Assembly (NCBI GenBank): GCA_963757595.1
Contig: CAVWRX010000005.1
Coordinates: 1,508 to 65,507 of the forward strand
Direction of reading: 5' to 3'
Source of the DNA: an uncultured Chloroflexia bacterium
Lineage (GTDB): Bacteria > Chloroflexota > Limnocylindria > Limnocylindrales > CSP1-4
DNA length: 64,000 nt
Made by a program: the position numbers and the translations under genes. Position 1 is the stretch's first letter; every line of letters starts with the position of its first letter. Shown here one piece after another: positions 12,806 through 64,000 of the stretch. Under the pieces are notes generated by a model. It did not search any database and was not told the origin of the DNA. It saw only the letters and a program-made list of their open reading frames with translations.

Positions 12806-12838
12806 CCGCGGCGCGACAAACGGCGTCAGACTTGCGGT

Positions 12839-13405: not shown

Positions 13406-13451
13406 GACAGGAGCCGGCGGCTGAGGGCTGAGGACGCGGCGCGACAGCGGA

Positions 13452-13922: not shown

Positions 13923-14101
13923 GCGCCAGCGAGCGCCAGCAATGGCGGGACCGCCGCCGCCCTTGTCCCACTCGCAGCCGCGTACATCGTCCGATGGTAC
14001 CGAAGCGGCGCGAATCCGAAGCCTCGTCCGGCGGAGAGCGGTGCTCGGTGGCCATGCCGGCGCGGATGAGGAGGGCATCCGGGCGGCGGGAGGCGTCATC
14101 G

Positions 14102-14353
14102 TCAGCGCGCGGGTGCGAGGACCTCGAGGGGCTGGAGGCCGTCGTCCGTTCCAATGCGGCCGCTCCGACAGAGCTCTCGCAGGAAGAGCAGGCGGTCCAC
14201 GTCAGCCAGCCGCCACGGCCGGCCGCCACCGACCACGATGCCCGACAGGTAGGCGGTGAGGTTCGCTGCCTCAGCCGTGGTGAAGCCGCGCAGCAGCAGG
14301 GCTCGATATGTCTCGCGCGTCGCCAACGCGCCTTCCTGCCGCGGTTCGGTCAT
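14102..14353 (-). CDS. small hypothetical protein (83 aa)
   Basis: Internal Met of ORF 14102..14545 (MTEPRQEGALATRETYRALLLRGFTTAEAANL...). It is divergent from the WYL regulator. No family is recognised. Confidence 0.35.
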   Translation of the reverse strand: MTEPRQEGALATRETYRALLLRGFTTAEAANLTAYLSGIVVGGGRPWRLADVDRLLFLRELCRSGRIGTDDGLQPLEVLAPAR

Positions 14354-14517
14354 GGCAGCCGATGATCTCCCCGATGCCTCGACGACCGGCCGGAAGCCGG
14401 TCGGGTCTGGTGCGGAAATGGTCGGTCCGGATGAGATGGGGGACGACCACCCGAGGGTCCCGGGCTCGCTGGTACTTGCGGTCATGCGCCGGGTATCCTC
14501 GCGGGAAAGGAGAGCGC

Positions 14518-18426: not shown

Positions 18427-19454
18427 GGCTTGGCCTCCTCTCGGGGTTCGTCCGGCCAGACGCCGACATGGTCGTCTTCCAGGCGCAACCGGACCCGGTG
18501 TTTCAGCTCGAGCGCCTCCACGTGGGACCGCGGCAGCTGGAGCCGGCCCGCCCGGTCGAGGACGGCAAACTCCTCGGCGATGATCCGGTGGTCACCTTCC
18601 TCCGTCTGCTCCGTCCGGCGGAAGGTCTCCGTGCTGGTCCGGCCGTCCCGGATCGAGACGGTCCGGTAGACCTGCTCGGCAACGTGGCTGTCGTGGGTGA
18701 CGACGACGATGGTCGTCCCGAACTGGGCGTTGACCTGGCGCAGGAGGCCGAAGACCTCGGCCGATGTCGTGCTGTCGAGCTCACCCGTGGGTTCATCGGC
18801 GAGGAGGACGGCGGGCTTGTTGGCGAGCGCCACGGCAATCGCGACGCGCTGCTGCTCGCCGCCGGACAGGCGCTCGGGGCGATGGCCGGCTCGATCCGCG
18901 AGGCCGACGGTCGTCAGGAGCTCCATGGCCCGCTCGCGGCGGTCGCGGCCGCCATCCAGGACCATCGGCAGCTCGACATTCTCGAGAGCCGTCAGGAACG
19001 GCAGCAGATTCCGCGCGGTCTGCTGCCAGATGACGCCGACGATCCGCCGCCGGTAGAGCGTCCGCTCACGGCGTCCCATCTGGCCGAGGTCATGACCGGC
19101 GACGACCGCCCTGCCGGCGGACGGCGTGTCGAGGCCGCCGAGGATGTTGAGGAGGGTCGACTTCCCGGAGCCCGAGGCGCCGATGATGGCGACGATCTCG
19201 CCGGCGTCCACCAGGAGGTCGAGACCCTGGAGGGCAACGACCTCGAGATCGGCGATCTTGTAGATCCGGACGAGGTTGTCGCAGGCAATGAGCGCGCCCT
19301 CGCCGAACCGCCGTCGCGTCGGCCTCGCCGTGGCAGCGGCGTTCGGATCTCGCGGCGGCAGCACCCCGGTCGCGACCGATCCAGGCTGCGCCGGGAGATC
19401 CTCGATCACCGGCGACCCCTGGTCGCCCGTGCGGTCGTGTCGCAAGTCGCTCAT
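18423..19454 (-). CDS. ABC transporter ATP-binding protein with ~50-aa N-terminal and ~100-aa C-terminal extensions
   Basis: Walker A GASGSGKST, signature [14 protein letters not shown], Walker [11 protein letters not shown] 4-nt overlap occurs at both ends. Confidence 0.9.
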   Translation of the reverse strand: MSDLRHDRTGDQGSPVIEDLPAQPGSVATGVLPPRDPNAAATARPTRRRFGEGALIACDNLVRIYKIADLEVVALQGLDLLVDAGEIVAIIGASGSGKSTLLNILGGLDTPSAGRAVVAGHDLGQMGRRERTLYRRRIVGVIWQQTARNLLPFLTALENVELPMVLDGGRDRRERAMELLTTVGLADRAGHRPERLSGGEQQRVAIAVALANKPAVLLADEPTGELDSTTSAEVFGLLRQVNAQFGTTIVVVTHDSHVAEQVYRTVSIRDGRTSTETFRRTEQTEEGDHRIIAEEFAVLDRAGRLQLPRSHVEALELKHRVRLRLEDDHVGVWPDEPREEAKP

Positions 19455-25200: not shown

Positions 25201-25517
25201 AGCGTCGTGACGCTCGCGGGATCGGTGGCCGCGTCGGCGAACACGGGCGATGTGGCGACCCGGGCAACCAGGCCACCCGACGGGCCGACGGCCGCCTCGA
25301 TCACGGGGCGGATGGCCGCATCCAGCGCGCCGGCCTGACTCGCCGGGTCGCCCGAGGTGACGACGATCGAACGGTCCGCGACGTCCGCCTGCGCCAGCGC
25401 CGCTCGAAGCCCGCCGAGCGCGACGGTGTCGCCATACAGCGCCCCGCCCGTCAGGAGGGTCGTCGCGCAGAGCAGCAGGAGCCACGCGGCGATCACGACC
25501 GGCCAGTCGGCGCGCAT
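22249..25517 (-). CDS. second large FtsX-family ABC permease (~1090 aa), reading frame broken once in this assembly
   Basis: ORF 23490..25517 covers TM1, an ectodomain, the first FtsX block with FRTRGASTGHL, four more TMs and the start of the second ectodomain. The real part of ORF 22249..24846 (from about 23535 down) covers the rest of that ectodomain and a C-terminal FtsX block (ALLRALGLSGRQL). The two are in different frames, with the break near 23525-23545. Confidence 0.75.
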
Positions 25518-28082: not shown

Positions 28083-28197
28083 GAGCCTGTCAACGAACTC
28101 GGCGACCCTTGACTTCCTCGGGGGACCTCCCAGTCTGGGAACACGCATCCGCTGGCGACCCGTGGGCACGATGGGTACATGGTGTCGGCGCGTCAGC

Positions 28198-28332
28198 TCA
28201 GTTCGGCGGGCGCCTCCGGGCGGCGCACTGGGCGTCGATCCAGGCCTTGTCGGCGTCCCAGTAGGCGCTCCCGCGCTCAAGCCCTTGGAGGGCGGCCTCG
28301 GCCTCCCACGCGTCGCACCAGCGTTCCGCGAC
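28198..28332 (-). pseudogene. 5'-truncated copy (last 44 codons) of the small gene at 30278..30505
   Basis: It translates to VAERWCDAWEAEAALQGLERGSAYWDADKAWIDAQCAARRRPPN*, matching 40 of 44 residues of the C-terminus of ORF 30278..30505. DNA similarity ends abruptly at 28332/28333, where the Rhs fragment begins. Confidence 0.7.
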
Positions 28333-29768
28333 AACGGCGGCAGCGCGTCGAACTTCACCTACTCCGCCACCGGCGACCAGACCCCGCCACGTACGACAGC
28401 ACGTCGGGCCTGACCACCTCGGCCTATGACCTCGGTGGTCGGCTCCTCACCGTCACCCCGCCCGGCGGGAGCGCCACGACGTACGGTCACGACGCCCTGG
28501 GCCGGATCAGCACCCGGACGACCGGTGCCTCCGTCGACACCTTGAGCTACATCGGCTGGAGCGACGTCGCCTGGCAGATCGCCAACACCGGTGGCACCGG
28601 GATCACCACGAAGAGCGCCCTCGACGCTACCGGTGCCCGGACCGCGGTCGCCGACGGCACCCACACCGGGTATCTGGGCTTCGATCTCCACGGCAACACC
28701 GCCCTCGCCGAGAACGGTGCCAAGACCGTCACCGACGCCCTCCGCTACGACGCCTGGGGCGAGGTCATCGCGAGTGCGTCCTCCGGTCTCTCATCTCCCT
28801 GGCGCTACCAGGGCCGGCTCGACATCGGGCCCGACACGACGAACCCGCTCTATGACTTCGGGGCCCGCACGTACCGCCCGGTCGAGGGCACGTTCACGAG
28901 CCTCGACTCCTATGCCGGGCAGGTCCTGGACCCGCTATCGATGAACCGCTTCCTGTATGCCGAGGCCAACCCGGCGACGCTCGTCGATCCGGACGGGCAC
29001 AAGACCTGCCGCGGCAACAACGACGCCAACTGCGACAGCTTCACCGGGCTGACACCGACCCAGGCTCAGGCGGTCCAGAAGACGTGGGACGCCAAGTACG
29101 GCGGCGTCGGCTCGGCCGGCTGGTGGATCGACAAGCAGGAGATCAGCCACGCCAAGGCGGGTGGAGCAGCAACCTACGTGCCGGCTGGCGACTACCTGAC
29201 CCCGAGCAGCTTCAGCCTGACCGTACCGGTGAGCAACATGGCGCTAGCCGCCTGCCCGACCTGCGTTGCTGACTCCACCGGATACGTCTATGACCCTAAC
29301 GGCCTCGATCCGTGGGGATCTCCGTTTCCCTTGGCGTGTACGGGGGCGAGAGATGTGCGAGGCTGTCTCCAATACGTCACGTATCTGAACGATACCAACC
29401 ATCTGCCGACCGCGGCCCAGATCAGTCTGGGAGCCTCAACATTGGCGATTCCACTCGACATCGCCGCTGTCGCCGGCGCCTTTAGTGGACCGGCCGACTT
29501 GCCTGCCTATGTCGCTGGCGGGCTGACGGCGGTTGCGATCGCAGCCGGCGCAATCGCGGCCACGTCGTCGTGCATCGTCGCACCGTCGGCCTCGTGCGGA
29601 CCTGACGCGGGGGCGTTCGTCTTTGCGCTCACCGGGCCGGTTGCTGCCGCTGCGAAGGGGGCTCGTCTCCTTCTTCAAAACGTAGCCGACACGTATCACT
29701 TGGCGGGCGATGCCGCGAGTGCCGTTCTGGGCTGGCTCGGTCAACTCGATCCCCGGTACAACCACTAG
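28333..29768 (+). pseudogene. orphan, 5'-truncated Rhs/YD-repeat core tail with a C-terminal polymorphic toxin domain (no start codon; one frame change at 28382-28388)
   Basis: YD repeats: NFTYSATGDQTP / ATYDSTSGLTTSAYDLGGRLLTV / TTYGHDALGRIS / RYDAWGEV. Rhs core end: WRYQGRLD...LYDFGARTYRPVEGTFTSLDS...NRFLYAEANPATLVDPDGH (DPDGH at 28986-29000). A 255-aa unrelated C-terminal domain follows. The first ~18 codons are in the frame of ORF 27733..28413 and the rest are in ORF 28179..29768. Confidence 0.8.
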
Positions 29769-39685: not shown

Positions 39686-41258
39686 ATGAGGGACGAGGCA
39701 AGCGGGACAGGGGCGCCGGAGCTGACGGGTCGGCAAACGCGGATGGTGCTGGGTGTCGTGGCACTGGCGTTGATGTCGGTGGTCTCGGCCGTCACCGGCC
39801 TGAACGTCGCCCTCCCGGACATGGCCCGGGAGACCGGCGCCTCGCAGACGCAGCTGACCTGGATCGTCGACGCCTACACCGTCGTCTTCGCGGGCCTCCT
39901 GTTCTTCGCCGGCGCGCTCGGCGATCGGTACGGCCGCCGGCGAGTCCTCCTCGTCGGGCTGGTGCTCTTCGGCATCGCCGGCGGCGCTGGGCCTGGCCAC
40001 GAGCGACCCCGTCCAGCTGATCGCCGTCCGGGCGTTCATGGGCATCGGGGCGGCCGGCATCATGCCCACGACCCTCTCGATCATCACGACCTCGTTCCCC
40101 GAGGATGAGCGCCCTCGGGCCATCGGCGTCTGGGTCGGGATCGCCGCGGGCGGCGCGGTGCTCGGCCTGTTCGTCAGCGCCCTCCTGCTCGAATGGTTCG
40201 CCTGGCAATCCTTCTTCGGGTTGAACGTGGCACTCGCGATCCTCGCGACGATCGGCGTCTTCGCGGTCGTGCCGAGCTCGGCAGATGAGGATCCACCGGC
40301 ACTCGACTTCGTCGGGGGTGTGCTGTCCCTGGTGACCGTCGGATCCCTCGTGTTCGGGATCATCGAGGCGCCCGATCGCGGCTGGACCGATGGCGTGACG
40401 CTCGCGGCCTTCGGGCTCGGCGTCGTGGCCGGTGCGACGTTCGTCTGGTGGGAGCTCCGGATCCCCCATCCCCTGCTCGATCCGCGCCTCTTCCGGCTCC
40501 GGCTGTTCAGCGCCGGATCGCTGACGATCGCCGTCCAGTTCTTTGCCTCGTTCGGGTTCTTCTTCATCGTCCTGCAGTACCTCCAGTACGTGACCGGCCG
40601 GACGGCACTCGAGGCGGCAGTTGCCCTGCTGCCGCTGCCGTTCGTCCTCATCCCGACCGCCCGCAATGCGCCGCTCCTCGCCCGGCGGATCGGCTTCCGG
40701 CGGGTCGCGCCCGTGGGCCTGCTCCTCACGGCCGCGGGCTTCTATCTCCTGAGTCAGCTCACGATCGACACGCCGTACTGGTTCTTCCTCATCGGCGTCC
40801 TCTTCTTCGGGCTGGGCATGGGCCTCGCCGGGACGCCCGCCACCACCGCGCTGACGAGCTCCCTCCCGATGTCCAAGCAGGGTGTCGCCTCGGCCATGAA
40901 CGACACCGCGCGAGAGATGGGCAGCGCGTTCGGCATCGCCATCCTCGGCGCGGTCCTGAACCAGTCCTACCGGGACGGCATGGCCTCGACGGCGGCCTCG
41001 CTGCCCCCGGCGATTGCCGAGCGAGTCCTGAGCTCGATCGCGTTCACCAGCTCACCGGCCGTGAAGCAGCTCGGGGCGGCCGGGCAGGCGCTCGTCGACA
41101 AGGCCCGCGAGGCGTTCGTCGGGGGCGTCTCCGACGCCGTCTTCATCGGCTGCGTGGTCCTCGCCGCCGCGGCGATCGTCGTGTTCGTCCTGGCGGGGGC
41201 CGAAGAGGAGACGAATCTGCAGGAGGTCGCCGCCGAGGGCCGCCCTCAGCCGGCGTGA
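39686..41258 (+). CDS. MFS drug:H+ antiporter (DHA2/EmrB-QacA-like, 14 TM), frame broken once in this assembly
   Basis: ORF 39686..40108 reads ...LNVALPDMARETGASQTQLTWIVDAYTVVFAGLLFFAGALGDRYGRRRVLLVGLVLFGIA. It continues in the frame of ORF 40038..41258 from AALGLATSDPVQLIAVRAFMGIGAAGIMPTTLSIIT. The break lies near 39975-39990. Confidence 0.8.
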
Positions 41259-52872: not shown

Positions 52873-53792
52873 TTCAGGGCAGCTACCAGCTGGTCCGTGT
52901 CCCAGCGGATCAACCCCACGTAGGAATCGACGGGTGGCTCGCCGAGCGAATCGTCGAAGAGGTTGGCAACGACCTTCGCGCCGGTTTCGTGGGCGATCTG
53001 GTCGACGAGATCGGTCGGGAACTGGTTCTCGGAGAAGATCGCCTTCACCCCGCTCGCCTTGATCGCGTCGATGAGCGCGGCGATCTCGCCGGCGCTGGGA
53101 TCCTGCCCGGGTGCCTTCACGGCAACCCCGACAATCGTCAGCCCATAGGCACGTGCGAAGTATGGCAGCGCATCGTGGAACAGGACGAACTTGCGGTCGG
53201 ACTCGGGGATCGTCCCGACCCGGCTTCGCACCCAGGCGTCGAGGTCCGCGAGCTGTGCGTCATAGGCGCCCGCGTTCGCCTCGTAGCTGGCCGCGCCGGC
53301 CGGATCGGCCTGGGCCAGGGCATCCCTGATCCTCGTCACATATCCCCGTGCGTACGTCACGTCCAGCCAGAGGTGGGGGTTCTCCGTTCCGGGTTCGTCG
53401 CCGGGCAGCAGGACGACGCCGGGCAGGTCCTCGCCGAGCCGAACCGTGAGTGCGTGACTGGACGCGGCCGTGAGCGTCTCCTGAAGCCAGTCGTCAAGCC
53501 CGAGCCCGTTCATCACGATGAGCCCGGCCGCGGCGACCGCCCGGACATCATCCGGCTTGGCCTGGTACGTGTGGACGTCGGCGCCCGCAGGGACGAGGCT
53601 CGTCACGAACACGCGACTGCCGCCAACGACGCGGATCATGTCCGCGAAGACCGTCGTCGTGGTGACGACCGTGAGCGCCTGGCCCGAGACCTGGCCGCTG
53701 GCGGAGGGGCCGCCGATGGCGCCGCACCCGGACACGGCGATCACGAGGCCGATCAGGACGGCGAGGGATCCTGGCAGACGAGCCGGTCGCAT
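52869..53792 (-). CDS. metal ABC importer substrate-binding lipoprotein (ZnuA/MntC/TroA cluster 9)
   Basis: ATG at 53792 within ORF 52869..54209. Lipobox LVIAVSGC. Segments: HTYQAKPDD, NPHLWLD, FHDALPYFA. Confidence 0.85.
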   Translation of the reverse strand: MRPARLPGSLAVLIGLVIAVSGCGAIGGPSASGQVSGQALTVVTTTTVFADMIRVVGGSRVFVTSLVPAGADVHTYQAKPDDVRAVAAAGLIVMNGLGLDDWLQETLTAASSHALTVRLGEDLPGVVLLPGDEPGTENPHLWLDVTYARGYVTRIRDALAQADPAGAASYEANAGAYDAQLADLDAWVRSRVGTIPESDRKFVLFHDALPYFARAYGLTIVGVAVKAPGQDPSAGEIAALIDAIKASGVKAIFSENQFPTDLVDQIAHETGAKVVANLFDDSLGEPPVDSYVGLIRWDTDQLVAALK

Positions 53793-53798
53793 CGATCC

Positions 53799-53828
53799 AT
53801 ATTGAGACTCAGTCGCAGTAAGCGTCAA
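53799..53828 (-). promoter_or_regulatory. candidate promoter giving a leaderless or near-leaderless metal-importer mRNA
   Basis: On the minus strand: TTGACG (53828-53823), an 18-nt spacer, then CAATAT (53804-53799), only 6 nt before the ATG at 53792. No Shine-Dalgarno sequence is visible. Confidence 0.3.
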
Positions 53829-53972
53829 GCGTGGAGGCCTGCTTGGGGCCGGTGAGGGGCTGGATGGCCCGCATCGTCCGGGCCCTGAGGACCTATCCGC
53901 TCGCGGTCGCGTCGCCGAACGTAGATGGCGTCGAGCGATCGTCGCACGGCGGAAGGGAGCGCCTGACCCGGC

Positions 53973-55766
53973 ATGAGCGGTCGCCCAAGCCTGACCGACC
54001 CTGAAGCGGACGCCGCCGATCTCCGCGTCCTGAAGGTCCTGGCGATCGTCCTGCCGGTCACGGCCGTGATCGTCGGCGAGTTCGTCCGGGCGAACCTCAT
54101 CGATCGATCGTTCGGCACCGACGTCGAGCACCTGATCTCGGGCGGCCTCGCGATCGTGGCGATCCTGGTCTTCACATCGCTGATGCTTGTCGGCATCCAG
54201 CGCGCCCAACGGTCACTTGTCCGCCAGAACCGGGACCTGCGGCTCGCCACCGCCGTCTCGAGCGGGCTCCAGGGCGACGACCCGGTTGACGAGGCGATCC
54301 AGCGGACCCTGACGACGATCCTGCACGCGACCGGCTCCGCGTCCGCAGCGGTGGCGATCCTGGACGACCCGGATACGCACGCGGGCGCTCGAACCCTGCA
54401 CGTGATGGCCAACGCTCCCGTCGACGCCGCCGGAACGCCGATCGAGGTCGCCCTCTGGTCGGGCGTCGACCTCGTCGGCCGGTTGACGCTCATGCCGGCG
54501 GCCGGCGTCGCGTCGGAGCCCGTGGATCGCGGTGTCCTCGACCTGATCGGCCACGAGCTGGCGTCCGCGATCCAGATGCGCCAGATGCTCGTCGACCTGC
54601 GGCGCCGACGGAACGAATCGGCCGCGCTGTACGACGTGGCCCTCCAGGTGACCGACCGCCAGCCGCTGGTCGGAATCCTCGGTTCGATCCGCGAGCACGC
54701 CCGGGACCTCCTGCGTGTCGACGAGGCGGCAATCTGCCTGACGGAGGCCGCTTCCGCCGCACTTCGACAGGCCCACCTCGTCGAAACGCCCCTTGGGGCC
54801 GGCGACGGCATCATCTGCATTTGTCCGACCGATCGCGGGCCGCTCGAGCGTCTCCACCCGGAGGACCCGCGCTGCCCTGTTCGCGACTCCGATCGATGGT
54901 CCATGAAGACGAAGGCGCCCCTTCGCAGCTCGGACGCGGTGCTCGGCGAGCTGTGGGTCGGCAGCCTGTCGGCCGAACCGCTCGACGAGCGCGACCGGGA
55001 GCTCCTGGCCGGCCTCGCCGATCTCGCGGCGATCGCGATCGTCAGTGCGAACCTGCGCGAGCGCGAGGCGATGGCGGCGATCGTCGCCGAACGGGAGCGG
55101 ATCGCGCGCGAGATGCACGACAGCCTCGCCCAGGTGCTGGCGACGTGCCATCTCCGCCTCTGCGCCCTTGAGCGACGCTCGGAGGTCGCGAGCCAGCCCA
55201 GTCTCGTCGACGAGATCGTGGCACTCGGATCGATGACCCACGAGGCCTACGTCGACGTGCGCGAGGCGATCCTGGGCCTCCGCGAGTCCAGCCATGCCGA
55301 TCGCGAACTGCTCACCAGCCTGCGCATCTACCTCGAGAAGTTCAGCCATCAGACGGGACTTGACGGGCGGCTCGAGACGGAGCTTCCCGACGATCTCTGC
55401 CTTGCGCCGGGTGCCGAGATCCAGGTCATCCGCGTCATCCAGGAAGCCCTGACCAACGTCCGCAAGCACGCCGGCGCGAGCGAGGCCGTCGTCCGGGTGG
55501 CCAATGACGGGGACGGCGTCTGCCTCGTCGTCCAGGACGACGGTCGCGGCTTCGACCCAGCCGAGGTCGGAACGCGTGATGACGGCTTTGGCCTGCATGC
55601 CATGCGCGAGCGGATGACGCTCGTCGGTGGATCCCTGTCCATCCACTCCACCCCGGGCAAGGGGACGCGGGTCGTCGCCCGCCTGCCCGCGGCCGGGTCC
55701 AACTCATCTGCATCGAGGCACGTCCGTGATGAACACGCCGAGTCCTACGCGCATCTTGCTGGCTGA
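53973..55766 (+). CDS. membrane GAF-sensor histidine kinase (HisKA_3 / NarX-DesK class)
   Basis: 597-aa ORF with two TMs and two GAF-like regions. H-box REMHDSLAQ, N-box QEALTNVRKHA, G1 VQDDGRGF, G2 GFGLHAMRER. Confidence 0.85.
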   Translation: MSGRPSLTDPEADAADLRVLKVLAIVLPVTAVIVGEFVRANLIDRSFGTDVEHLISGGLAIVAILVFTSLMLVGIQRAQRSLVRQNRDLRLATAVSSGLQGDDPVDEAIQRTLTTILHATGSASAAVAILDDPDTHAGARTLHVMANAPVDAAGTPIEVALWSGVDLVGRLTLMPAAGVASEPVDRGVLDLIGHELASAIQMRQMLVDLRRRRNESAALYDVALQVTDRQPLVGILGSIREHARDLLRVDEAAICLTEAASAALRQAHLVETPLGAGDGIICICPTDRGPLERLHPEDPRCPVRDSDRWSMKTKAPLRSSDAVLGELWVGSLSAEPLDERDRELLAGLADLAAIAIVSANLREREAMAAIVAERERIAREMHDSLAQVLATCHLRLCALERRSEVASQPSLVDEIVALGSMTHEAYVDVREAILGLRESSHADRELLTSLRIYLEKFSHQTGLDGRLETELPDDLCLAPGAEIQVIRVIQEALTNVRKHAGASEAVVRVANDGDGVCLVVQDDGRGFDPAEVGTRDDGFGLHAMRERMTLVGGSLSIHSTPGKGTRVVARLPAAGSNSSASRHVRDEHAESYAHLAG

Positions 55767-56397
55767 GGACCAACCCCTCTTCCGGACGGCCCTCGCGACG
55801 CTCATCGACGGGCAGCACGACTTCGATGTCGTGGGCCAGGCAGAAAACGGCCTGCAGGCCCTCGAGCTCGCCCGCGAGCTCATGCCCGACGTCGTCCTCA
55901 TGGATGTCGAGATGCCGGTCATGGACGGCGTCGCGGCAGTGCACCTCATCCACGACGAACTGCCGGGCGTCCGCGTCGTCATGCTCACGATCTCGGATTC
56001 GGACGATCACCTGTTCGACGCGATCCGCTTCGGCGCCGACGGCTACCTGCTCAAGGACCTCCGGCCGGAGCACCTGTACGACATGATCCGGGCCGTCATG
56101 CGCGGCGAGACCCCGTTGTCCCCGGCCATCGCCGGCCGTCTCCTGCGCGACGTTCGCGAGCGTGGCCCGGTGCACGTGGCACCGACGGTCGAGGAGCAGT
56201 CCCTGACCCGGCGCGAGATCGAGACGCTCCAGCTCGTCGCGAACGGCCTGTCCAACAAGGAAATCGGGACCCGCCTCTCGATCACCGAGGGGACGGTCAA
56301 GAACCACGTCCACAACGCCCTCGAGAAGCTCCAGCTCGAGAACCGGATCCAGGCCGCCGCCTACGTCGTCCGGCAGGGCTGGGCCGTACGCCCGTGA
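55729..56397 (+). CDS. NarL/LuxR-family response regulator
   Basis: ATG at 55729 (MNTPSPTRILLAEDQPLF). Phospho-acceptor region DVVLMDVEMPVMDG. C-terminal LuxR HTH LTRREIETLQLVANGLSNKEIGTRLSITEGTVKNHV. It overlaps the kinase 3' end by 38 nt. Confidence 0.9.
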   Translation: MNTPSPTRILLAEDQPLFRTALATLIDGQHDFDVVGQAENGLQALELARELMPDVVLMDVEMPVMDGVAAVHLIHDELPGVRVVMLTISDSDDHLFDAIRFGADGYLLKDLRPEHLYDMIRAVMRGETPLSPAIAGRLLRDVRERGPVHVAPTVEEQSLTRREIETLQLVANGLSNKEIGTRLSITEGTVKNHVHNALEKLQLENRIQAAAYVVRQGWAVRP

Positions 56398-56469
56398 GAT
56401 CCGCGGCGTCCCGACCATGCTCCTCGGCCGCCGCGGGGTATCGGGCGGTAGACCTCGCCCTCGGCCGAA

Positions 56470-56952
56470 ATGTGTCGGACCGGGGATGGCGCTCGCCGAG
56501 ACTCGGCACCTAGCATCCTTCCCATCGACCCCCACTGGAGTCCGCCGTTGGACCCGCAGCCCGTCCGCCTGGCAATCATGTATGACCACCCCCTCCTCGG
56601 CGAGGGCCTGGGCCGGATGCTCGACCTCGAGCCCGGCCTGGACATCGACTTCGTGGAGGCACGCGATCGCGGCCGGGTGGATGCGGCCATCGGCTCGTTA
56701 CCCGACATGGTCGTCGTCGAGCGATCGAGCGGCATCGACGCCCTCGAGATCCTCCGGCGATCACCGAATACCCTCGTGATCGAGGTGACGATCGGCCCAG
56801 GCCCTACCTGGGTATACCGACGCCAGGAGATCTCCGGCGAGCCCGAAGCCGTCCTGGGCCTGGTCCGGCGCCTGCGTGGCGGCCACCCGGCGGTCGCCGT
56901 CGAGCGGCCGGAAGCGATGCCGCAGCTCGTCGGCGCGGCGCGTCAGGGCTAG
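56470..56952 (+). CDS. stand-alone receiver-like (pseudo-receiver) protein
   Basis: The REC-like pattern VRLAIMYDHPLLGEGLGRML...PDMVVVE...ALEILRR..NTLVIEV has Glu where the phospho-Asp is expected. The start is uncertain (TTG 56548 or ATG 56578 are possible). Confidence 0.45.
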   Translation: MCRTGDGARRDSAPSILPIDPHWSPPLDPQPVRLAIMYDHPLLGEGLGRMLDLEPGLDIDFVEARDRGRVDAAIGSLPDMVVVERSSGIDALEILRRSPNTLVIEVTIGPGPTWVYRRQEISGEPEAVLGLVRRLRGGHPAVAVERPEAMPQLVGAARQG

Positions 56953-57198
56953 CCCTCGGGGCCACACGGTCCCGTCCTCCGGCCCGGGTCCACCCCGCCG
57001 ACATCCCCCGTGGACCTCGTCCGGCTATGACGAAGCGACCCCCGGCGTGTACCCGATATCTACCCCTCGGCGGATGGGATCGAGGCCGAGCCCGGCGCAC
57101 GATCGACACAGGACCGGGACTCCGCCACGACCTTTTCCCTTCCGGCGTGGCGGAGCACCGGCCCGGTACCTCGCAATTTCGAAGGGCTGGCGAACGAC

Positions 57199-58170
57199 AT
57201 GCAGACCTCGCGGGCCTTCCACGGCCCAGACGACCGAATGCTCAACCGGGCCATCAAGCTGATGGCCTTGATCCTCCTGGTCGGCGTCCCGAGCATCGCG
57301 GCGCTGTACTGGATGGACCGTCACGTGGACGCCCCCGCCCCCCTCGCGGACCGCACGGTCAGCGCCGCGGAGGATGCCGTGCGGGCGAACCCCAACGACC
57401 TCGCGGCTCGCAATCACCTCGCCGCGGCCTATGTCTCGGCCAAACGCTATGACGACGGGATCGCCCAGTTCGGTCAGATCCTCGATCGCGATCCGATCAA
57501 CCGCGCAGCCCTGCTCGGGCGCGGCCTCGCCTATGTGGCGACGGAGCGCTACGACACCGCGGCAACCGACTTCCAGGCCCTCGTCGACGCCGCCGGCACG
57601 GGCGAGTTCGCGGCCACCGACCCGCAGCTGCAGCAGGCCTATTACGAGCTCGGCGTGGTGGCCCTCGAGCAGGGCCGGCCCGCCGACGCCATCACTCCGC
57701 TCCAGCAGGCGCTCCAGATCAATGCCGCCGACGCCGATGCCCTCTATCGCTACGGCATGGCCCTCATCGGCACCGGAGACGCGGCGAGCGGCGTGAAGGC
57801 GCTGCAGCGGGCGGTGACGTTCGTTCCCTCCGGCTGGTGCGAGCCGTACGCCGGACTGGTGACGGGGTTCACGGCCCTCGGCGACACGGCAGGCACCGGT
57901 TGGGCGAACGGCATGGTCGCCTTCTGCGGTGGCCGCCTCGACGAGGCGACGGCCGCCCTCTCGACGCTGACCACGGGGCCTCGTCGAACCGAGGCGCTCC
58001 TCGGACTCGCCCTCGTCGCGGCCACGGGCGGCGATGCGGCGACGGCCATGGGCTACTACCAGGAGGTCCTCGCGACCGACCCGAACAACACGTCCGCGCT
58101 GATCGGGCTGGGCCAGCTCGGCGCCGTCAACGCCCATGCGTCCCAGCCGGCGCTCGACGGGAGCAATTGA
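57199..58170 (+). CDS. membrane-anchored TPR-repeat protein
   Basis: 323-aa ORF. TM helix AIKLMALILLVGVPSIAALYWM, followed by at least 6 TPR-like units (A..Y......Y..A...F...L..DP.N). Confidence 0.8.
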   Translation: MQTSRAFHGPDDRMLNRAIKLMALILLVGVPSIAALYWMDRHVDAPAPLADRTVSAAEDAVRANPNDLAARNHLAAAYVSAKRYDDGIAQFGQILDRDPINRAALLGRGLAYVATERYDTAATDFQALVDAAGTGEFAATDPQLQQAYYELGVVALEQGRPADAITPLQQALQINAADADALYRYGMALIGTGDAASGVKALQRAVTFVPSGWCEPYAGLVTGFTALGDTAGTGWANGMVAFCGGRLDEATAALSTLTTGPRRTEALLGLALVAATGGDAATAMGYYQEVLATDPNNTSALIGLGQLGAVNAHASQPALDGSN

Positions 58171-58171
58171 C

Positions 58172-59320
58172 ATGACGACGCCCGACATGACCGCGGGAGA
58201 CCTGCCCATCGACGGAGGGCTCGCTGCCGACCCTGCTCCGGCGGCCGCCGCCGGCACCGGGGTCTCGGTCGAGCCCGCGCCTGGACCGTCGACCGGTTCT
58301 GCACCGGAAGTCCCGGAGACCCAGATCGCGCCGGAGGATCCTGGCCGGCGTCGGCGAATCCGGATGCTGCTGGCCATCATCCTCGGCGCCCTGCTCCTGG
58401 GCTTCCTGGCGTTCGCGGCCTGGTACCTCCTCTTTCGGAAGCCGATCTCGCAGCTGCCTCTGCCGAACCTCGAAGAGGGCGTCATGCCCGGCTTCTCGTT
58501 CGCGGCGTACGACCTCGAGAAGCCGCTCGGCATCGCCGTGAGCGCCGACGGCAGCCGGATGTACGTGACCCAGACCGGCGGCGACCAGGCGACGCTGATG
58601 CTCGACGGGCGCGGCACCCGGCTCGGGACGCTGACACCGCCGACCGATGTCGCCGCACGCACCACCCAGCTCTACGTCGCGGTCGACCCGAAGACGGGCG
58701 ACGTCTACGCCACCGATCGCTCGCATGGCGCGGTCTACATCTACTCGGCAGACGGGGTCTATCGCGGCATCTTCCGGCCCGATCCGGATCCAGGTGCCTG
58801 GCAACCGCTCGCCATCGCCTTCGATCGGGATGGGAACCTCTTCGTGTCCGACGCCGGGGGGGCCTTCCAGACGGTTCGCGAGATGGACCGGAACGGCCAC
58901 GTCGTGCTGACCATCGGCAAGGACGGGATGCTGAACTTTCCGAACGGCATCGCCGTCGACAAGTCCGGCGACATCTACGTCACGGACAGCAACAACGGGC
59001 GCCTGCTGGTGTTCGACAAGGAGGGCGCGCAGCTGGGGCTGGTCCAGCGTGGCCCGGCCCAGGGCGAGTTCAGCATGCCGCGAGGCATCGTCGTCGATGA
59101 CGCCGGCAAGGTTTACGTCGTCGATGCCGTCGGCCAGGGCGTCCAGGTCTATCGCGCGATGGCCTCCGGCGACCAGGCGCCTCACTACCTCGACCGGTTC
59201 GGCCGCGAGGGGACGGTCGACGGGGCCTTCGAATTTCCCAACGGAATTGCGGTCGACAGCCGCGGCCGCGTCTACGTGGCCGACTGGAACAACGACCGCA
59301 TCCAGATCTGGAGTTACTGA
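58172..59320 (+). CDS. membrane-anchored NHL-repeat six-bladed beta-propeller protein
   Basis: ATG at 58172, 1 nt after the TPR stop. TM helix IRMLLAIILGALLLGFLAFAAWYLLF. NHL units: PLGIAVSADGSRMYVT, VAVDPKTGDVYATD, PLAIAFDRDGNLFVSD, PNGIAVDKSGDIYVTDSNNGRLLVF, PRGIVVDDAGKVYVVD, PNGIAVDSRGRVYVADWNNDRIQIW. Confidence 0.85.
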   Translation: MTTPDMTAGDLPIDGGLAADPAPAAAAGTGVSVEPAPGPSTGSAPEVPETQIAPEDPGRRRRIRMLLAIILGALLLGFLAFAAWYLLFRKPISQLPLPNLEEGVMPGFSFAAYDLEKPLGIAVSADGSRMYVTQTGGDQATLMLDGRGTRLGTLTPPTDVAARTTQLYVAVDPKTGDVYATDRSHGAVYIYSADGVYRGIFRPDPDPGAWQPLAIAFDRDGNLFVSDAGGAFQTVREMDRNGHVVLTIGKDGMLNFPNGIAVDKSGDIYVTDSNNGRLLVFDKEGAQLGLVQRGPAQGEFSMPRGIVVDDAGKVYVVDAVGQGVQVYRAMASGDQAPHYLDRFGREGTVDGAFEFPNGIAVDSRGRVYVADWNNDRIQIWSY

Positions 59321-59427
59321 TGACTCGAATGGCAGGGAAGGGCAAGGAGGTGGCTCGTAGTCCCGACACAGCGCCCGCAGCGCGGGCATCCATCGTCGAA
59401 CCTCGCACCCACAAGGAGGTGAGGACA

Positions 59428-61020
59428 GTGAGGCGATTTGCCCTCCTGCTTGCAGGAGGCGCGCTCTGGCTGATCCTGGCCGCTTCGGCGGCCTATGCCG
59501 ATGGTGGGCCTCATCAGCTCGCCGTCAACAACGGGTCGGCGGGACTCAGCGGCGACTGCGCCGCCTGTCACCGCGCCCACACCGCCCAGGCGGCCGACCT
59601 GCTGAAGTCATCGATGCCCGGCCTGTGCCTCACGTGCCATGACGGCGCGGGAGCCACGACCGACGTCGTCGACGGCATTCAGTACACACCGGCTGGCAGC
59701 GGATTCCAGCAGACCGCCGTGCTCGGAGCCCTCCGAGGCGGTGGCTTTGAATACGCCCTCATGGACGCCGCCGACGCTTCGCGCCTTTCGTATTCATCGC
59801 GCGGCGGCATCGCGATCACGTTCGACGCCGTTCCGGCGTCGGGCACGATCACCGTGACCTGGCCGTCATTCACCGGCTTTGCCGGCGGGACCCTGACGTT
59901 CGTCGCCGGGTCGACGACGGGAGAACTCCAGACGGCCGCGGACACCTTGTTCCTGACATCCACCGTGTACACGAGTTCAACGGCCACCGGGAACATGAGC
60001 AGTCCCACCACCAGCAACATGAAGGTCACCGGCGCTCCGTCGTCGAAGACCGTGACGTTCGCGCCGAACAACGCATTCCGCGTCGTGGACATTCCGCTGC
60101 CGACCGTGACCACAAACACGACCGGCACCAACGTGACGGTCACGAATGGGATCAGCGTCGGTGGCGCGGGCCATGTCGGCGTCCTCGCCGACGGGACTGC
60201 CACGACCTCTCAGCACGAGGGGCTCGGGACGGTCTGGGGCAATGGCGCGCAGGGCCAGGGCAACGTCGGCGCAACCGGCGTGTCCCTGGAGTGCACGAAC
60301 TGCCACAACCCGCACGGAAACGGCCAGTACCGCATCCTCAACACCCTTCCGGGTGAGGATTGGGCCAACGGGACCGACGGCGTTGCCGATTGGACCGCCC
60401 CGATCAACGCGGTCGAAGTCGCGGACGGGGCCACCCTTACGGCTGGCCAGGTCCGGAACTACACCGTGCTGCCGTCGACCAACGGGCTGACGACCGGCGT
60501 CGTCGGCGCGGCCGCCGATGGCGATTACTGGCGCTACAAGTACGACCCGTCGGGCCTGGCGAACTTCACGAACTTCTACCTCAAGCCCGATGACATGAAC
60601 ACCGGCTGGAACGGAAGCAGTGCGACGAACGCCGCCGCCAACGGCGGTGTCGCACCGGCCAACAGCACGGGTCTCATGACCGCGTGGTGCATCACCTGCC
60701 ATACGCGGTACAACGGTCTCCCAACCGGCTCCAGTGCGTCTTCGCTCACGGCGATGACGCCGACGGATGCGATCTTCATGTACAAGCACGGCACCACCCG
60801 CGTTGGGTGCGAGCAGTGTCACGTTTCCCATGGTTCGAATGCCGCGATGACGGCGCAGTTCTCGTCGACGTACGAGTACGCCGACGGGACGTCGGAAGAC
60901 AGCGCCCTCCTCAAGGTCGACAACCGCGGGACGTGCCAGCTCTGCCACGACCCGACAGGAACCGTGGACGCCGGGACGAAGGTGGGGACGGTTCCCCTCC
61001 TGATCACCCCTGGCCCATAA
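59428..61020 (+). CDS. secreted hexahaem c-type cytochrome with paired (doubled) CXXCH motifs
   Basis: GTG at 59428 lies 8 nt after AAGGAGG. Signal peptide RRFALLLAGGALWLILAASAAYA. Six CXXCH motifs: CAACHRAH, CLTCH, CTNCHNPH, CITCH, CEQCHVSH, CQLCH. Long Thr/Ser/Gly/Asn-rich haem-free segments are present. The track ORF starts at 59320. Confidence 0.85.
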   Translation: MRRFALLLAGGALWLILAASAAYADGGPHQLAVNNGSAGLSGDCAACHRAHTAQAADLLKSSMPGLCLTCHDGAGATTDVVDGIQYTPAGSGFQQTAVLGALRGGGFEYALMDAADASRLSYSSRGGIAITFDAVPASGTITVTWPSFTGFAGGTLTFVAGSTTGELQTAADTLFLTSTVYTSSTATGNMSSPTTSNMKVTGAPSSKTVTFAPNNAFRVVDIPLPTVTTNTTGTNVTVTNGISVGGAGHVGVLADGTATTSQHEGLGTVWGNGAQGQGNVGATGVSLECTNCHNPHGNGQYRILNTLPGEDWANGTDGVADWTAPINAVEVADGATLTAGQVRNYTVLPSTNGLTTGVVGAAADGDYWRYKYDPSGLANFTNFYLKPDDMNTGWNGSSATNAAANGGVAPANSTGLMTAWCITCHTRYNGLPTGSSASSLTAMTPTDAIFMYKHGTTRVGCEQCHVSHGSNAAMTAQFSSTYEYADGTSEDSALLKVDNRGTCQLCHDPTGTVDAGTKVGTVPLLITPGP

Positions 61021-61090
61021 CCCAGTTCACGAGTCGACGGCCCGCGGGCACCACCCCGGGCCGTCGAACACCACTTCGCGAAGGGAAGTC

Positions 61091-63285
61091 GTGACTCGCC
61101 AACGGCGTCCTCGCCGTCATCAAACCTGGCCCGCGATCCTGGCCCTGGCACTCGCCGTGTGGGCGATGCCGTTCGCCGGGTTCGGCGGCGCCGGCCTGGC
61201 GATCGCCACCACGAATGCGGCCGACCCGACCGCTGCCCCGGCGATCGATCCGACGGCGGATCCGGCGCCCGAGCCCTCGGCAAGTGCTCCCGCCGCGTCT
61301 CCGACCGCATCGCCCGCGGCGTCCCCCGACCCGAGTCCGACGATCGACCCGAGCCCCGACGATCGACCCGGGGGCGACGATCGCCCCCGTTGCGACCACC
61401 GGCGCCGGTCCGGATGCCACGCCCGACCCCATGCCCACGGACCCGCCGACGGTCGATCCGACCCCGGCCCCTGCGCCGGCCCCGGACGCTTCGCCGCCCG
61501 AGCCATCACCTGCGCCGACCCCCTCGGCGAGTGACCCGGGGACATCGCTGGAGCCGGGCCCGGGGACATCGATCGAGCCCGATCCGTCACCGTACGTCCT
61601 CGTGGAGCCCGTCGGGCTTGCCGATCGCGACCACGGGTCCATTCAGCGTGAGCGGGATCATCTACACCCTCTCGCCGGGGCAGCGACCCGGCGACGCAGT
61701 CGGTCCGGCGATCCCCATCTACGAGCTCAAGCTGCCGGCCCTGGCGGTCGACCAGGACAGCCCGCACGGCGGCGGCGGCGTAAACGGCTCCGACTGCGCG
61801 GCGTGCCATGCCGCGCACCGTGGTCAGCAGTCCGACCTCGTCGACACGGCCGGAGCGGAGGCGGCCGTCTGCTACGTCTGTCATGCCCCCGGCGGTGGCG
61901 CGTCGGACGTCCGAACCGCCCTCACCGCCACAAACGCGAATGACGTCGCCAGCGATGCCTTCTTCAGCCATCCCGTCGGCGGCGCGACGGGGACGGCCGC
62001 CGACACGTGCTCCGAGTGCCACAATCCGCACCTCTCGGGTTCTGGTCGCCCGGTCCAGTCGACAACCGGCTGGACTGCCGAGGGCCCGATCGCCGCCGCC
62101 GAGGGCGTCACCCCACGCAACGGCGGTCCGGGTGACGCACCCGCCTACACGGCGCGGTCAACCCCCACGCTGACGTACGAGTACGAGCTCTGCCTGCGAT
62201 GCCACTCCGCGGCGGAAGGGCCGCTCCCGTCGAGGGACGCCGCGCATCCGTCGTGGTGGGCCCTCGACGCAGGGGTCGAGTTCAACCCTGCCAACAACTC
62301 CTACCACCCGGTGGAGGCCGCGGGCCGGAACGTGAGCGCCCAGATGGCCGCCAGCCTGGCGGGGACCTCGCCCTTCAAGGCCTGGGACTTCCAGGTTGAC
62401 TCGACGATCCGCTGCGCGAGCTGCCACGGCGACCCATCGACGGTGAACCAGGTCGCCAGCGGCACGCCGCTCACTCCCGACGCCGACGCCAGCGAGGCAA
62501 CGCACGGTTCCCCGAACCGCGGGATCCTCACCGCTCCATACCGCGACCGGGACCTCAAGGCGGCCGGCGAGTCGTACGACCCGGAAGACTTCGCCCTCTG
62601 CTATCTCTGCCACGCGGAGCGGCCATTCGTGGACGGCAATGTCGACCCGAGCGCGCCCGACACGGCGTTCCCGCTGCACGGATTCCACATCGCGGGCGCC
62701 GACGTCCAGGCGGCGGGCGGAGAACCGGGCGCCGGTCTGTCGATTGACGTCGCCGGAGACGGCCAGGGCCTCGCAACGTGCTCGGAGTGCCACTTCCGGA
62801 GCCACTCGACGGCGATCGCCTACGCACCCGGCGACACCGCCCCGGTTGCCCGTGCCGATGGCGCGGCGGGTCTCGTGGCCTTCGCGCCGGACGTCCGGCC
62901 GGCCGGCGGTACGCTCACCTGGACAGCGCCCGACGGCAGCGGCCAGGGGTCCTGCACGCTGACGTGCCACGGGCACGAGCACACGGCCGCCGTGGATACG
63001 TACGAGGTCGCCCCCGCCACCGGGTTCACCGCCAGCCCGACGAGCGGATCGGTCGGCATCGACGGGCTGACGGTGGCGTTCACCGACGCCACCCGGTATG
63101 TCGCGGACGGCGAGGCCACCTGGGCCTGGTCCTTCGGCGACGGGGAGACGGCCGCCGACCGGAACCCGGTGCATGTGTACGCGGCCCCGGGCAGGTATGT
63201 GGTCACGCTCACCGTCGAGCGGACGACCGGCAGCGGACTGTCGACGACATCGACACGGACCGACTACATCACCGTCCTGCCCTGA
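61091..63285 (+). CDS. secreted multihaem c-type cytochrome (7 CXXCH plus 1 CX3CH) with a C-terminal PKD domain; two frame changes in the N-terminal linker in this assembly
   Basis: Signal/TM WPAILALALAVWAMPFAG (ORF 61091..). Pro/Ala/Thr linker (frame of ORF 61215..). Main body in ORF 61159..63285: CAACHAAH, CYVCH, CSECHNPH, CLRCH, CASCH, CYLCH, CSECHFRSH, CTLTCH. PKD-like end: FTASPTSG...VAFTDAT...WAWSFGDGETAADRNPVHVYAAPGRYVVTLTV. Confidence 0.8.
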
Positions 63286-63557
63286 TCCCGGCGCCGGGCG
63301 CGGCGTCGCCGCGCTCCCCGAGCGGGCCGTTCGGACTGTATCGATCGGTATAGGCCGCCGTACCGGCAGTACCGAGCGGGCGCCGCTCGCATACCCGAAA
63401 TGTGCCCGCCGACGGATGGGATCCGGACGCCGCCGTCCCGACAATCGCTGCAGGTGTCAATCCGCAGGCGTCCTGCGGCACGAGGGCAAACGAGGGCAGG
63501 TTTCATGAACGAGCTGCAGCGGCAGATGGGACGTATCCCCACGCCGGCGGTGCGGCG

Positions 63558-64000
63558 ATGACCGCGCAAGTCGGCAGCCCGGCGACGCTCGAAGGCGTCC
63601 GGGCCGATCTCCTTTCCAGGCTCGGGCTCGACGACCGGGCGACCCCCGATGATCTCGCCGAAGCGCACGAGACCGTCGAACTCTTCCTCGCCTCAGCCCC
63701 GCGCCAGCTTGGCGCCTGGGCGCGACGCCAGGCCTCCACGGCCGACGAGGCGTACGCGCTCCTCACAGACCCGGCAGCTCTCGCGCGCACCGTCGCCCTC
63801 GGCGCTCGCGCGAATCGGCCGGACCCTGCTCCCGGCGGACCGGCGACACCTCCGGTCCGTCGGGAGCCTTCCCCCGCGCCCGCGGCGAGCTCCGCCACCC
63901 AGGCAAAGGGCCGCAAGGGCAGCCGAGCGGCGGCCGCGGCCGCCGTCGAGCCGACCGACGACGAGCTGGCGGAACTCATCGCGTCCGTGACGCCGAGCGC
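63558..64000 (+). CDS. hypothetical protein, 3' end outside the window
   Basis: Own translation from ATG at 63558: MTAQVGSPATLEGVRADLLSRLGLDDRATPDDLAEAHETVELFLASAPRQLGAWARRQASTADEAYALLTDPAAL... It stays open to the window end and is preceded by an 18-codon ORF whose TGA overlaps this ATG. It is not in the ORF track because it has no stop. Confidence 0.5.
   Translation, partial: MTAQVGSPATLEGVRADLLSRLGLDDRATPDDLAEAHETVELFLASAPRQLGAWARRQASTADEAYALLTDPAALARTVALGARANRPDPAPGGPATPPVRREPSPAPAASSATQAKGRKGSRAAAAAAVEPTDDELAELIASVTPS

Follow-up and report, generated by a model that had tools for sequence, protein, structure and literature searches.

Near the end of the 64,000-nucleotide stretch of contig CAVWRX010000005.1 (assembly GCA_963757595.1) that we analysed, here called the window, four genes encode a TPR protein, an NHL beta-propeller protein and two multihaem c-type cytochromes (Cyt1 and Cyt2). 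Comparison with related genomes indicates that these four genes are the conserved core of an extracytoplasmic module of ~12 genes in ~50 uncultured Limnocylindria species. From profile comparisons we conclude that Cyt1, and via Cyt1 also Cyt2, are remote, colinear homologs in the OmcS superfamily, predicted to serve as electron-wire proteins, and we give a probability of roughly 0.55 to the reading that these genes form the centre of a self-contained respiratory module, through which electrons pass between the quinone pool of the membrane and the cell exterior. An earlier note on this DNA had proposed an undescribed extracytoplasmic electron-transfer assembly. The conserved gene order and the conserved histidines bear out the multihaem assembly, whereas the idea that it is wholly undescribed has to be given up: since the cytochromes are remote relatives of OmcS, the module is a divergent form of a known type of system. 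Extracellular multihaem cytochromes with propeller partners are known already, and what is new is the form of the system, its host and the link to OmcS.

The four genes lie head to tail and in one direction within positions 57199-63285, in the order TPR, NHL, Cyt1, Cyt2. The NHL ATG at 58172 is 1 nucleotide past the TPR stop, the Cyt1 GTG at 59428 lies 8 nucleotides downstream of an AAGGAGG (59413-59419), and a gap of 70 nucleotides separates the end of Cyt1 (61020) from the Cyt2 GTG at 61091. In all these respects (tight co-directional packing, the 1-nucleotide spacing, the AAGGAGG and the 70-nucleotide gap), as in the guanine-plus-cytosine (GC) content of about 70%, our coordinates and counts agree with the earlier note, and profile searches recovered all four of its domain types (paired CXXCH, NHL, TPR and PKD). 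The description of the host as actinobacterial or Chloroflexi-like was right in its second half: the relatives found among species genomes are metagenome-assembled genomes (MAGs) of Chloroflexota, none of them actinobacterial, which rules out an actinobacterial origin, and the host is a member of the Chloroflexota, class Limnocylindria. A promoter and terminator scan of 53700-64000 gave no match, such a scan being uninformative at this GC content and in this phylum.

Cyt1 carries a cleavable signal peptide, which ends in AAYA and is followed by DGGPH, and the GTG at 59428 is its most plausible start. A motif scan agrees with the arrangement described before, namely six CXXCH haem motifs in pairs whose first members (motifs 1, 3 and 5) read CXXCHXXH, and the protein matches the paired-CXXCH profiles PF09699 (70.5 bits in three stretches, cutoff 20.6) and TIGR01905 (57.7 bits, cutoff 25.2). 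Exactly six histidines outside the motifs are essentially invariant (H29, H51, H263, H296, H454 and H468). A haem-free insert had been placed between motifs 3 and 4, a stretch that proves to be conserved family core; the dispensable insert (~130-140 amino acids) sits instead between motifs 2 and 3, is missing in paralogs and orthologs of ~400-440 amino acids, and on removal leaves a core of ~400 amino acids. AlphaFold2 models this insert as a compact beta-rich domain with a predicted local distance difference test score (pLDDT) of ~98, and no significant fold match to it was found in the Protein Data Bank (PDB). A second optional insert, of ~70-90 amino acids, follows ...MNTGWNG... (Cyt1 residue ~400) in the family members P0017, P0032, P0052 and P0064, with the pattern ...TVTSA.GFP....Y.V.I..E.M.V....G....V.RG...T....H..G..V, and is not present in the Cyt1 of the window. 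At the very end of nearly all members (~61003-61017 in the window) stands an ...(I)TPG(P/N) motif, which one local hhalign alignment paired with the MTPGG segment after haem 2 of OmcS.

For the comparison with OmcS we used a query sequence identical to 6EF8 and a family profile of 42 aligned homologs, which was set against the Cyt1-family profile with hhalign. The two families matched with a probability of 95.6% (E-value 1e-8) and a global score of 110, whereas reversed profiles scored 9-13 and the two unrelated decahaem families of these loci, NapC-type and bc-associated, scored 1-9. Run with -mact 0.1, hhalign aligned 337 columns colinearly, starting at the signal peptide and reaching the last haem, with ~26% identity over aligned columns; this alignment brings the six CXXCH motifs and the three CXXCHXXH histidines all into register. 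The order of distal histidines relative to the motifs (M1 to M6) is likewise equal in the two families, being H29, M1+H51, M2, H263, M3+H296, M4, H454, M5+H468, M6 in Cyt1 and H27, M1+H41, M2, H135, M3+H172, M4, H282, M5+H360, M6 in the OmcS family (P0121 numbering), with the column match of the third and fifth uncertain. Of the 120 sequences of the Cyt1 family, 70 were matched by the OmcS hidden Markov model (HMM), which matched none of the 52 control decahaems. As a single sequence, OmcS gave a non-colinear local match to the Cyt1 profile (probability 51%), and the relation is clear only profile versus profile. Other cytochrome families scored below their cutoffs: the MtrC/OmcA decahaem profile (PF22113) gave 29.5 bits for Cyt1 and 29.1 bits for Cyt2 (cutoff 30), with no fold match from the low-confidence models, and the DmsE/MtrA decahaem profile (TIGR03508) gave 46.5 bits (cutoff 192). 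Against solved structures, the sole match of the Cyt1-family profile was a local one, through the paired-CXXCH region, to MtrA (6R2Q, E-value 0.0025).

Cyt2 is homologous to Cyt1 (hhalign global E-value 8e-24), and the Cyt1 HMM matches 42 of 46 Cyt2 orthologs, down to an E-value of 1e-10. The window protein also matches PF09699 (41.7 bits, cutoff 20.6), TIGR01905 (28.6 bits, cutoff 25.2) and PKD_4 (57 bits). It had been described as a protein of ~730 amino acids with a linker, a PKD domain and eight CXXCH motifs; the linker and the PKD domain stand, whereas the haem motifs are seven CXXCH and one CX3CH (CTLTCH), and the gene is split over three frames. The first frame starts at the GTG at 61091, the second runs from ~61358 and the third from ~61590-61620 to 63285, with apparent +1 shifts in the linker near 61352-61358 (61340-61370 region) and at ~61585-61620, and GC content at third codon positions (GC3), taken frame by frame, tracks the same path. 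Next to the first shift lie a run of C and a acgatcgacccg (TIDP) unit in two copies. An annotated related locus, L001, holds an intact Cyt2 ortholog of 716 amino acids with signal peptide, linker of ~130-170 amino acids, cytochrome and PKD domain. In a second one, L002, Cyt1 is 97% identical to that of the window and the DNA is ~93% identical across Cyt2, which is broken there at other positions; the breaks of this locus (7830-8851 and 11814-13956) split the TPR gene, truncate the regulator and leave Cyt2 in two pieces. Because the breaks in L002 differ, L001 is intact and many of the relatives are long-read soil MAGs, we read the shifts as assembly indels and not as a shared pseudogene, and the two +1 shifts are most likely long-read indel errors. 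The breaks in L002 suggest that such errors are systematic in assemblies of this kind. Elsewhere in the window, two overlapping open reading frames with good coding signal, 39686-40108 and 40038-41258 (+), may likewise be one indel-split gene.

Ten non-motif histidines are conserved for the eight haems of Cyt2 (46 orthologs), so that in both cytochromes the conserved histidines suffice for all haems to be bis-His-ligated, and neither protein contains CXXCK. For these two reasons we regard Cyt1 and Cyt2 as probable electron wires and reject a catalytic haem in either.

The TPR and NHL proteins each have a single hydrophobic N-terminal segment with Arg/Lys on its N-terminal side, and the domains that follow should therefore face outward, in line with the anchoring proposed earlier. 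In the NHL protein, a Pro/Ala-rich N-terminal tail, predicted to be cytoplasmic, precedes an Arg-flanked transmembrane segment (residues 61-89) and then the propeller. The TPR protein scores 36.4 bits against PF23914 (TPR_CcmH_CycH, the CcmI/NrfG-type apocytochrome chaperones), under the cutoff of 42 and far below generic TPR families; by analogy, a chaperone-like role is possible. The propeller matches NHL (PF01436) at 105 bits against a cutoff of 20, and its best PDB matches are the non-enzymatic NHL domains of TRIM71 (E-value 1e-34) and the PknD sensor (8e-22). Across 63 NHL orthologs the conserved residues are propeller-structural only, with no conserved His and no conserved Cys, which disfavours a redox or metal-enzyme role; where the propeller had been suggested to be either a scaffold or a catalytic partner, the data fit a non-catalytic partner.

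A propeller gene accompanies omcS as well. In L077, a Geobacter locus, omcS encodes a protein with 94% identity to the reference OmcS and is immediately preceded by a gene for a secreted propeller of 315 amino acids, to which the NHL family aligned with a probability of 97.7% over 244 columns, compared with a weak 47% for OscD. The other L077 proteins compared had no match to the NHL or TPR families, and the families of OscB (spermine-synthase-like), OscE/F/G and the isomerase OscH are not among the Pfam matches for L001 and L002. An apparent fusion of TPR and NHL in locus L069 was traced to frameshift read-through and is not genuine; a TPR-family match to the Geobacter propeller was an artefact caused by that read-through sequence.

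The Cyt1 family is a large one. Matches numbered 859 in a word-indexed search of 5.8 billion proteins; when 1.84 billion cluster representatives were searched exhaustively with the profile, 320 reached E ≤ 1e-30 and 913 reached E ≤ 1e-10. In a survey of 185,579 species with one genome each, 137 stretches encode a Cyt1 relative; the matches listed are all Chloroflexota MAGs, from soil, groundwater, lakes, permafrost and vents, and many are named Candidatus Limnocylindrales. We then mapped the proteins of the window and of L001 and L002 onto related loci of at least 20 kb (50 or 48 loci). Gene order is nearly invariant in 48 loci, running from kinase, NarL regulator and pseudo-receiver through TPR, NHL, one to three Cyt1-type genes and usually Cyt2 to a TPR-CcdA fusion, ResB/CcsA, ResA and a NapC/NirT-type decahaem cytochrome. 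Adjacency of TPR, NHL and cytochrome is kept in 43 of the 48, and the synteny of the four genes, which the earlier note had proposed to check, is conserved in ~48 species-level loci. Table 1 gives the coordinates and the occurrence of each gene.

Table 1. Features of the module in the window, and the number of related loci in which each gene was found
Feature	Position	Strand	Evidence or remark	Related loci
Sensor histidine kinase, GAF + HisKA_3 + HATPase_c	53973..55766	+	Pfam; transmembrane-like residues 14-43, 49-79	46/50
NarL/LuxR-type response regulator	55729..56397	+	Response_reg 93 bits, GerE 67 bits	49/50
Pseudo-receiver, 160 amino acids	56470..56952	+	hhalign to receiver domains; no Pfam match	48/50
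Membrane-anchored TPR protein, 323 amino acids	57199..58170	+	TPR_16 81 bits; transmembrane residues 15-33	50/50, directly upstream of NHL
Membrane-anchored six-bladed NHL beta-propeller, 382 amino acids	58172..59320	+	NHL 105 bits; transmembrane residues 61-89	50/50
Cyt1, secreted hexahaem c-type cytochrome	59428..61020	+	Signal peptide, 6 CXXCH, Paired_CXXCH_1 70.5 bits	
Optional beta-rich insert domain of Cyt1, ~residues 115-250	59770..60177	+	Missing in homologs of ~400-440 amino acids	
Cyt2 piece 1, signal peptide and start of Pro/Ala/Thr linker	61091..61357	+	Matches N-terminus of L001 ortholog; frame with highest GC3	
Cyt2 piece 2, mid-linker, second frame	61358..61600	+	Frame-wise GC3 and translations	
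Cyt2 piece 3, octahaem domain, then C-terminal PKD (~63025-63282)	61618..63285	+	Motifs; PKD_4 57 bits	
TPR-CcdA (DsbD_TM) fusion, 5' end, runs off window	63558..64000	+	96.6% identity over 147 amino acids to L002	
Maturation genes				43-45/50
NapC-type gene				43/50

The last part of this block explains an absence in the window. It had been noted that neither ccm/resBC genes nor a quinol dehydrogenase were to be seen; since the CcdA fusion starts at 63558 and runs off the end, this apparent lack is an effect of the window edge, and both lie immediately downstream in the conserved block. The counterpart of the fusion in L002 is a TPR/DsbD_TM protein of 650 amino acids, followed by ResB-CcsA, ResA and the NapC/NirT decahaem, and the System II genes (DsbD_TM, ResB, Cytochrom_C_asm and thioredoxin-like) are present in both L001 and L002, the window holding the first 147 codons of the CcdA fusion. 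A cytochrome c maturation system, whose absence from the genome would have spoken against the cytochromes, is thus part of the block itself. At the start of the CcdA fusion, the first ~150 residues are without a recognised domain. The NapC-type proteins, which lie outside the window (515 amino acids in L002 and 664 in L001), match Cytochrom_NNT (PF03264) and have one transmembrane segment and 10 CXXCH, and on these features the NapC/NirT-type decahaem qualifies as a predicted member of the quinol dehydrogenase family. No porin or other beta-barrel family is among the Pfam matches for the genes of L001 and L002 (two loci only).

As first described, the module lies downstream of a GAF kinase, a NarL regulator and a pseudo-receiver, all of which Pfam and hhalign recovered. 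The kinase has two N-terminal transmembrane segments and a core resembling DesK, VraS and DevS; the start of the NarL-type regulator is uncertain, its open reading frame opening at GTG 55627. The pseudo-receiver (57 orthologs) aligned with the receiver domains of the neighbouring regulators with a probability of 95.7% (E-value 1e-8), and its acidic pocket is altered, with Glu at the phospho-acceptor position. Between pseudo-receiver and TPR, ~14 loci carry a small Rieske-like open reading frame (L010 at ~7305, L016, L021, L027, L033, L063 and L075 among them), which the window lacks, its gap at 56953-57198 being 246 nucleotides long. In some loci a gene for a PCYCGC protein, or genes for a Rieske/cytochrome b/decahaem complex, lie close to the module, and the MAG behind one locus with the full module (L026, VEOW01000005.1) is labelled 'MnB_4 Mn-Chloroflexi-1', a hint, from the label alone, of a manganese-cycling setting.

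In the accessible literature on Limnocylindria with multihaem cytochromes or extracellular electron transfer we found no description of this module. The one broad survey of Chloroflexi, whose threshold for a multihaem protein is at least four haem motifs in the results section and more than 20 in the methods, treats such proteins mainly in Anaerolineae and has no description of the cluster. Comparable systems exist in other phyla, and beta-propeller partners are a recurring feature beside extracellular cytochromes (DFE, Uet, OmcE, osc). Among the closest are OmcS and the osc genes of Geobacter sulfurreducens, which share with the module a hexahaem core of ~400 amino acids, colinear profiles, the distal-His pattern, an upstream NHL-type propeller and tandem paralogs. 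The similarity is, however, remote (~26% identity over aligned columns, weak HMM scores, no Foldseek match), and Cyt1 differs by its extra beta-domain insert of ~135 amino acids, the Limnocylindria cluster by its built-in System II, NapC-type decahaem and GAF/NarL two-component system, and the host by being probably single-membraned, with no porin or other beta-barrel family among the Pfam matches of L001 and L002. For single-membrane cells, a chain of multihaem cytochromes that crosses the wall and links membrane and surface is a concept shared with Thermincola potens, which uses a different family, the NrfA/OTR-like OcwA, and is not known to have a TPR/NHL pair. Desulfovibrio ferrophilus IS5 carries the clusters DFE_448-451 and DFE_461-465, in which multihaem cytochromes are co-expressed with NHL propellers proposed to stabilise an extracellular complex (PMC5815863); that organism has an outer membrane, and its clusters are not described as having built-in maturation genes. 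The Uet cluster of Candidatus Tenderia, with the NHL propellers UetH and UetI, multihaem cytochromes, CcsA/CcsB and an NrfG-like TPR protein (bioRxiv 10.1101/2022.05.06.490989), likewise unites propellers, multihaem cytochromes, System II and TPR in one conserved block with a proposed role in extracellular electron exchange. Uet is gammaproteobacterial and has features of its own that the window module lacks: the beta-barrel UetC, a prolyl isomerase, a cupredoxin, trihaem c7 domains and an undecahaem main cytochrome. The minimal set of OmcE clusters is always multihaem cytochromes with two beta-propeller proteins (bioRxiv 10.1101/2025.10.22.684050), but these differ in having a tetrahaem OmcE, a large beta-barrel and lipoprotein propellers, and they are reported from five double-membraned phyla, Chloroflexota not among them. 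What sets the Limnocylindria module apart, beside the lack of beta-barrel families among the Pfam matches of L001 and L002, is that TPR and NHL are both predicted to be membrane-anchored and that the block includes maturation genes, a quinol-linked decahaem and the GAF/NarL/pseudo-receiver set.

On the respiratory reading that we favour, the NapC/NirT-type decahaem would exchange electrons with menaquinol and hand them to secreted Cyt1 and to Cyt2, whose long Pro/Ala/Thr linker and PKD domain may place it in or beyond the cell wall; together the two would take the electrons across the wall, and past it, in a probably single-membrane cell. System II (TPR-CcdA, ResB/CcsA and ResA) would attach the haems, after which the translationally coupled TPR/NHL pair may act as a non-redox scaffold or assembly platform. 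Expression would be conditional, with oxygen or redox state as the probable signal to the kinase, NarL regulator and pseudo-receiver. Electrons may flow outward, with Fe(III), Mn(IV) or humics as acceptors, or inward, with reduced minerals as donors; the sequence carries no information on their direction.

Several observations weigh against this reading. Direct HMM-to-sequence scores between the OmcS and Cyt1 families do not exceed 26 bits and come with high composition bias. AlphaFold2 models, calculated haem-free for Cyt1 (120 sequences, mean pLDDT 78) and for the insert-free paralog P0068 (84 sequences, 69.5), gave no significant match to OmcS or any cytochrome in Foldseek searches of the PDB, the pLDDT of the haem regions lying below 50-70; the best match was to FliD D2-D3 (E-value 0.6). 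True OmcS homologs can reach a Foldseek E-value of ~1e-36 according to the methods section of bioRxiv 10.64898/2026.08.10.744021, and the missing match may mean either that the relationship is distant or that the models are poor. A full maturation system in the cluster could mean a general cytochrome c island for aerobic respiration. Moreover, Limnocylindria include aerobic freshwater plankton, in which mineral respiration is not expected, and the single-membrane envelope is an assumption from general knowledge of Chloroflexota.

One alternative is that the module works inward. Extracellular Fe(II), Mn(II), reduced humics or a partner cell would then be the source of the electrons, and a terminal oxidase and the quinone pool their destinations. 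Multihaem chains are reversible in principle. The route to that pool would lead through the NapC-type decahaem or through a Rieske/cytochrome b/decahaem complex, adjacent in 10-15 of 50 loci, the MAG of one relative bears the label "Mn-Chloroflexi-1", and the Uet and DFE clusters with their NHL propellers have been proposed as electron-uptake systems (bioRxiv 10.1101/2022.05.06.490989; PMC5815863). However, no linkage to carbon fixation or an oxidase was seen in the loci and a MAG label is not functional evidence, and we hold inward flow to be unlikely. Somewhat more doubtful is an ordinary respiratory cytochrome island beside the general cytochrome c maturation genes of the genome. The two cytochromes, soluble or tethered, would then connect a complex that oxidises quinol with a terminal oxidase or reductase and would have no function outside the cell. 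That maturation genes stand inside the block in most loci, that a cytochrome b is encoded in another part of the window and that the lineage is generally known to include aerobes would all suit such an island, and diverse habitats have been described for the lineage (bioRxiv 10.1101/2021.08.23.457424). Yet two large secreted OmcS-superfamily proteins with 14 haems between them, one having a surface-type PKD domain and a linker of ~170 amino acids, exceed the needs of a carrier to an oxidase, and the dedicated TPR, NHL and two-component proteins point to a conditional, specialised function.

The kinship with OmcS raises the question of filaments. Cyt1 might be a polymerising nanowire subunit of the OmcS type with inter-subunit His-haem ligation, H51 acting as His16 does in OmcS, Cyt2 serving as base, anchor or cap, and TPR/NHL being the counterpart, in a cell with a single membrane, of the Geobacter assembly factors. 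This would accord with the colinear homology, the six haems and the shared order of motifs and distal histidines, including the CXXCHXXH His, and with a core of ~400 amino acids once the insert is set aside; in both lineages an NHL propeller gene adjoins the cytochrome gene, and the one to three tandem Cyt1 paralogs per locus compare with omcS, omcT and oscC. The formation of OmcS filaments is, moreover, reported to be under the control of osc genes, among them the one for the beta-propeller-like OscD (Shen et al., 2025, as cited in PMC13194489). On the other hand, the haem-free, low-confidence models gave no fold match to 6EF8, the CXXCHXXH motif is generic in paired-CXXCH domains of non-filament cytochromes such as MtrA, and of the osc set the propeller alone is shared (among the compared L077 proteins and the Pfam matches of L001 and L002). 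No filament structure is known to have been solved for OmcT or OscC, the paralogs of OmcS, and belonging to the OmcS family therefore does not in itself mean that a protein polymerises. We accordingly hold the nanowire proposal, and polymerisation of Cyt1 in the manner of OmcS, to be unlikely, and a shade less likely still the complete picture in which Limnocylindria make OmcS-type filaments without an outer membrane, from a Cyt1 subunit with an extra surface domain, a wall-spanning Cyt2 base or cap and TPR/NHL as a minimal assembly machine. Highly improbable, finally, is a catalytic NHL propeller (lactonase-, PAL- or hydrazine-synthase-like) with the cytochromes as its redox partners: sub-threshold or generic matches to SGL/gluconolactonase, arylesterase and strictosidine-synthase propellers, and a match to a PAL domain in the PDB (E-value 1e-6), are offset by the purely structural conservation in the 63 orthologs and by the non-enzymatic nature of the best PDB matches.

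Among the remaining genes of the window, a cytochrome b with a b6-type N-terminal half (572-1300) stands beside an FAD/4Fe-4S oxidoreductase of 638 amino acids (1297-3213), both within 1-3213 (-), and beside the cytochrome b an open reading frame of 141 amino acids without a Pfam match runs off the window start. At ~55 kb from the module, these genes may encode a further quinol-linked complex. Two open reading frames with strong coding signal, 19451-22252 (-) with 933 amino acids and 23490-25517 (-) with 675, have no Pfam match at E ≤ 1e-5. A triple-GAF GGDEF diguanylate cyclase (10073-12805, +), a WYL-WCX regulator (14308-15522, +) and an RHS-repeat protein (28179-29768, +) are apparently unrelated to the module.

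Limnocylindria (Ellin6529, RIF-CHLX) are an abundant, uncultured class found widely in soil, groundwater, aquifers and lakes, their respiration being largely inferred. With haem attachment, a quinol-linked decahaem and OmcS-superfamily cytochromes in one conserved and regulated block, the module suggests that they can exchange electrons with minerals, humics or partner cells, which would bear on the taxa to which the cycling of iron, manganese and carbon is assigned. The module is, besides, a porin-free, stripped-down setting in which to ask what NHL and TPR proteins do, the same question being posed in Geobacter, Desulfovibrio and Tenderia. If Limnocylindria were indeed to form filaments, they would be the first single-membrane bacteria with a cytochrome nanowire system, and wiring of the OmcS type would extend to oxic-anoxic transition habitats, far beyond the classical metal reducers.

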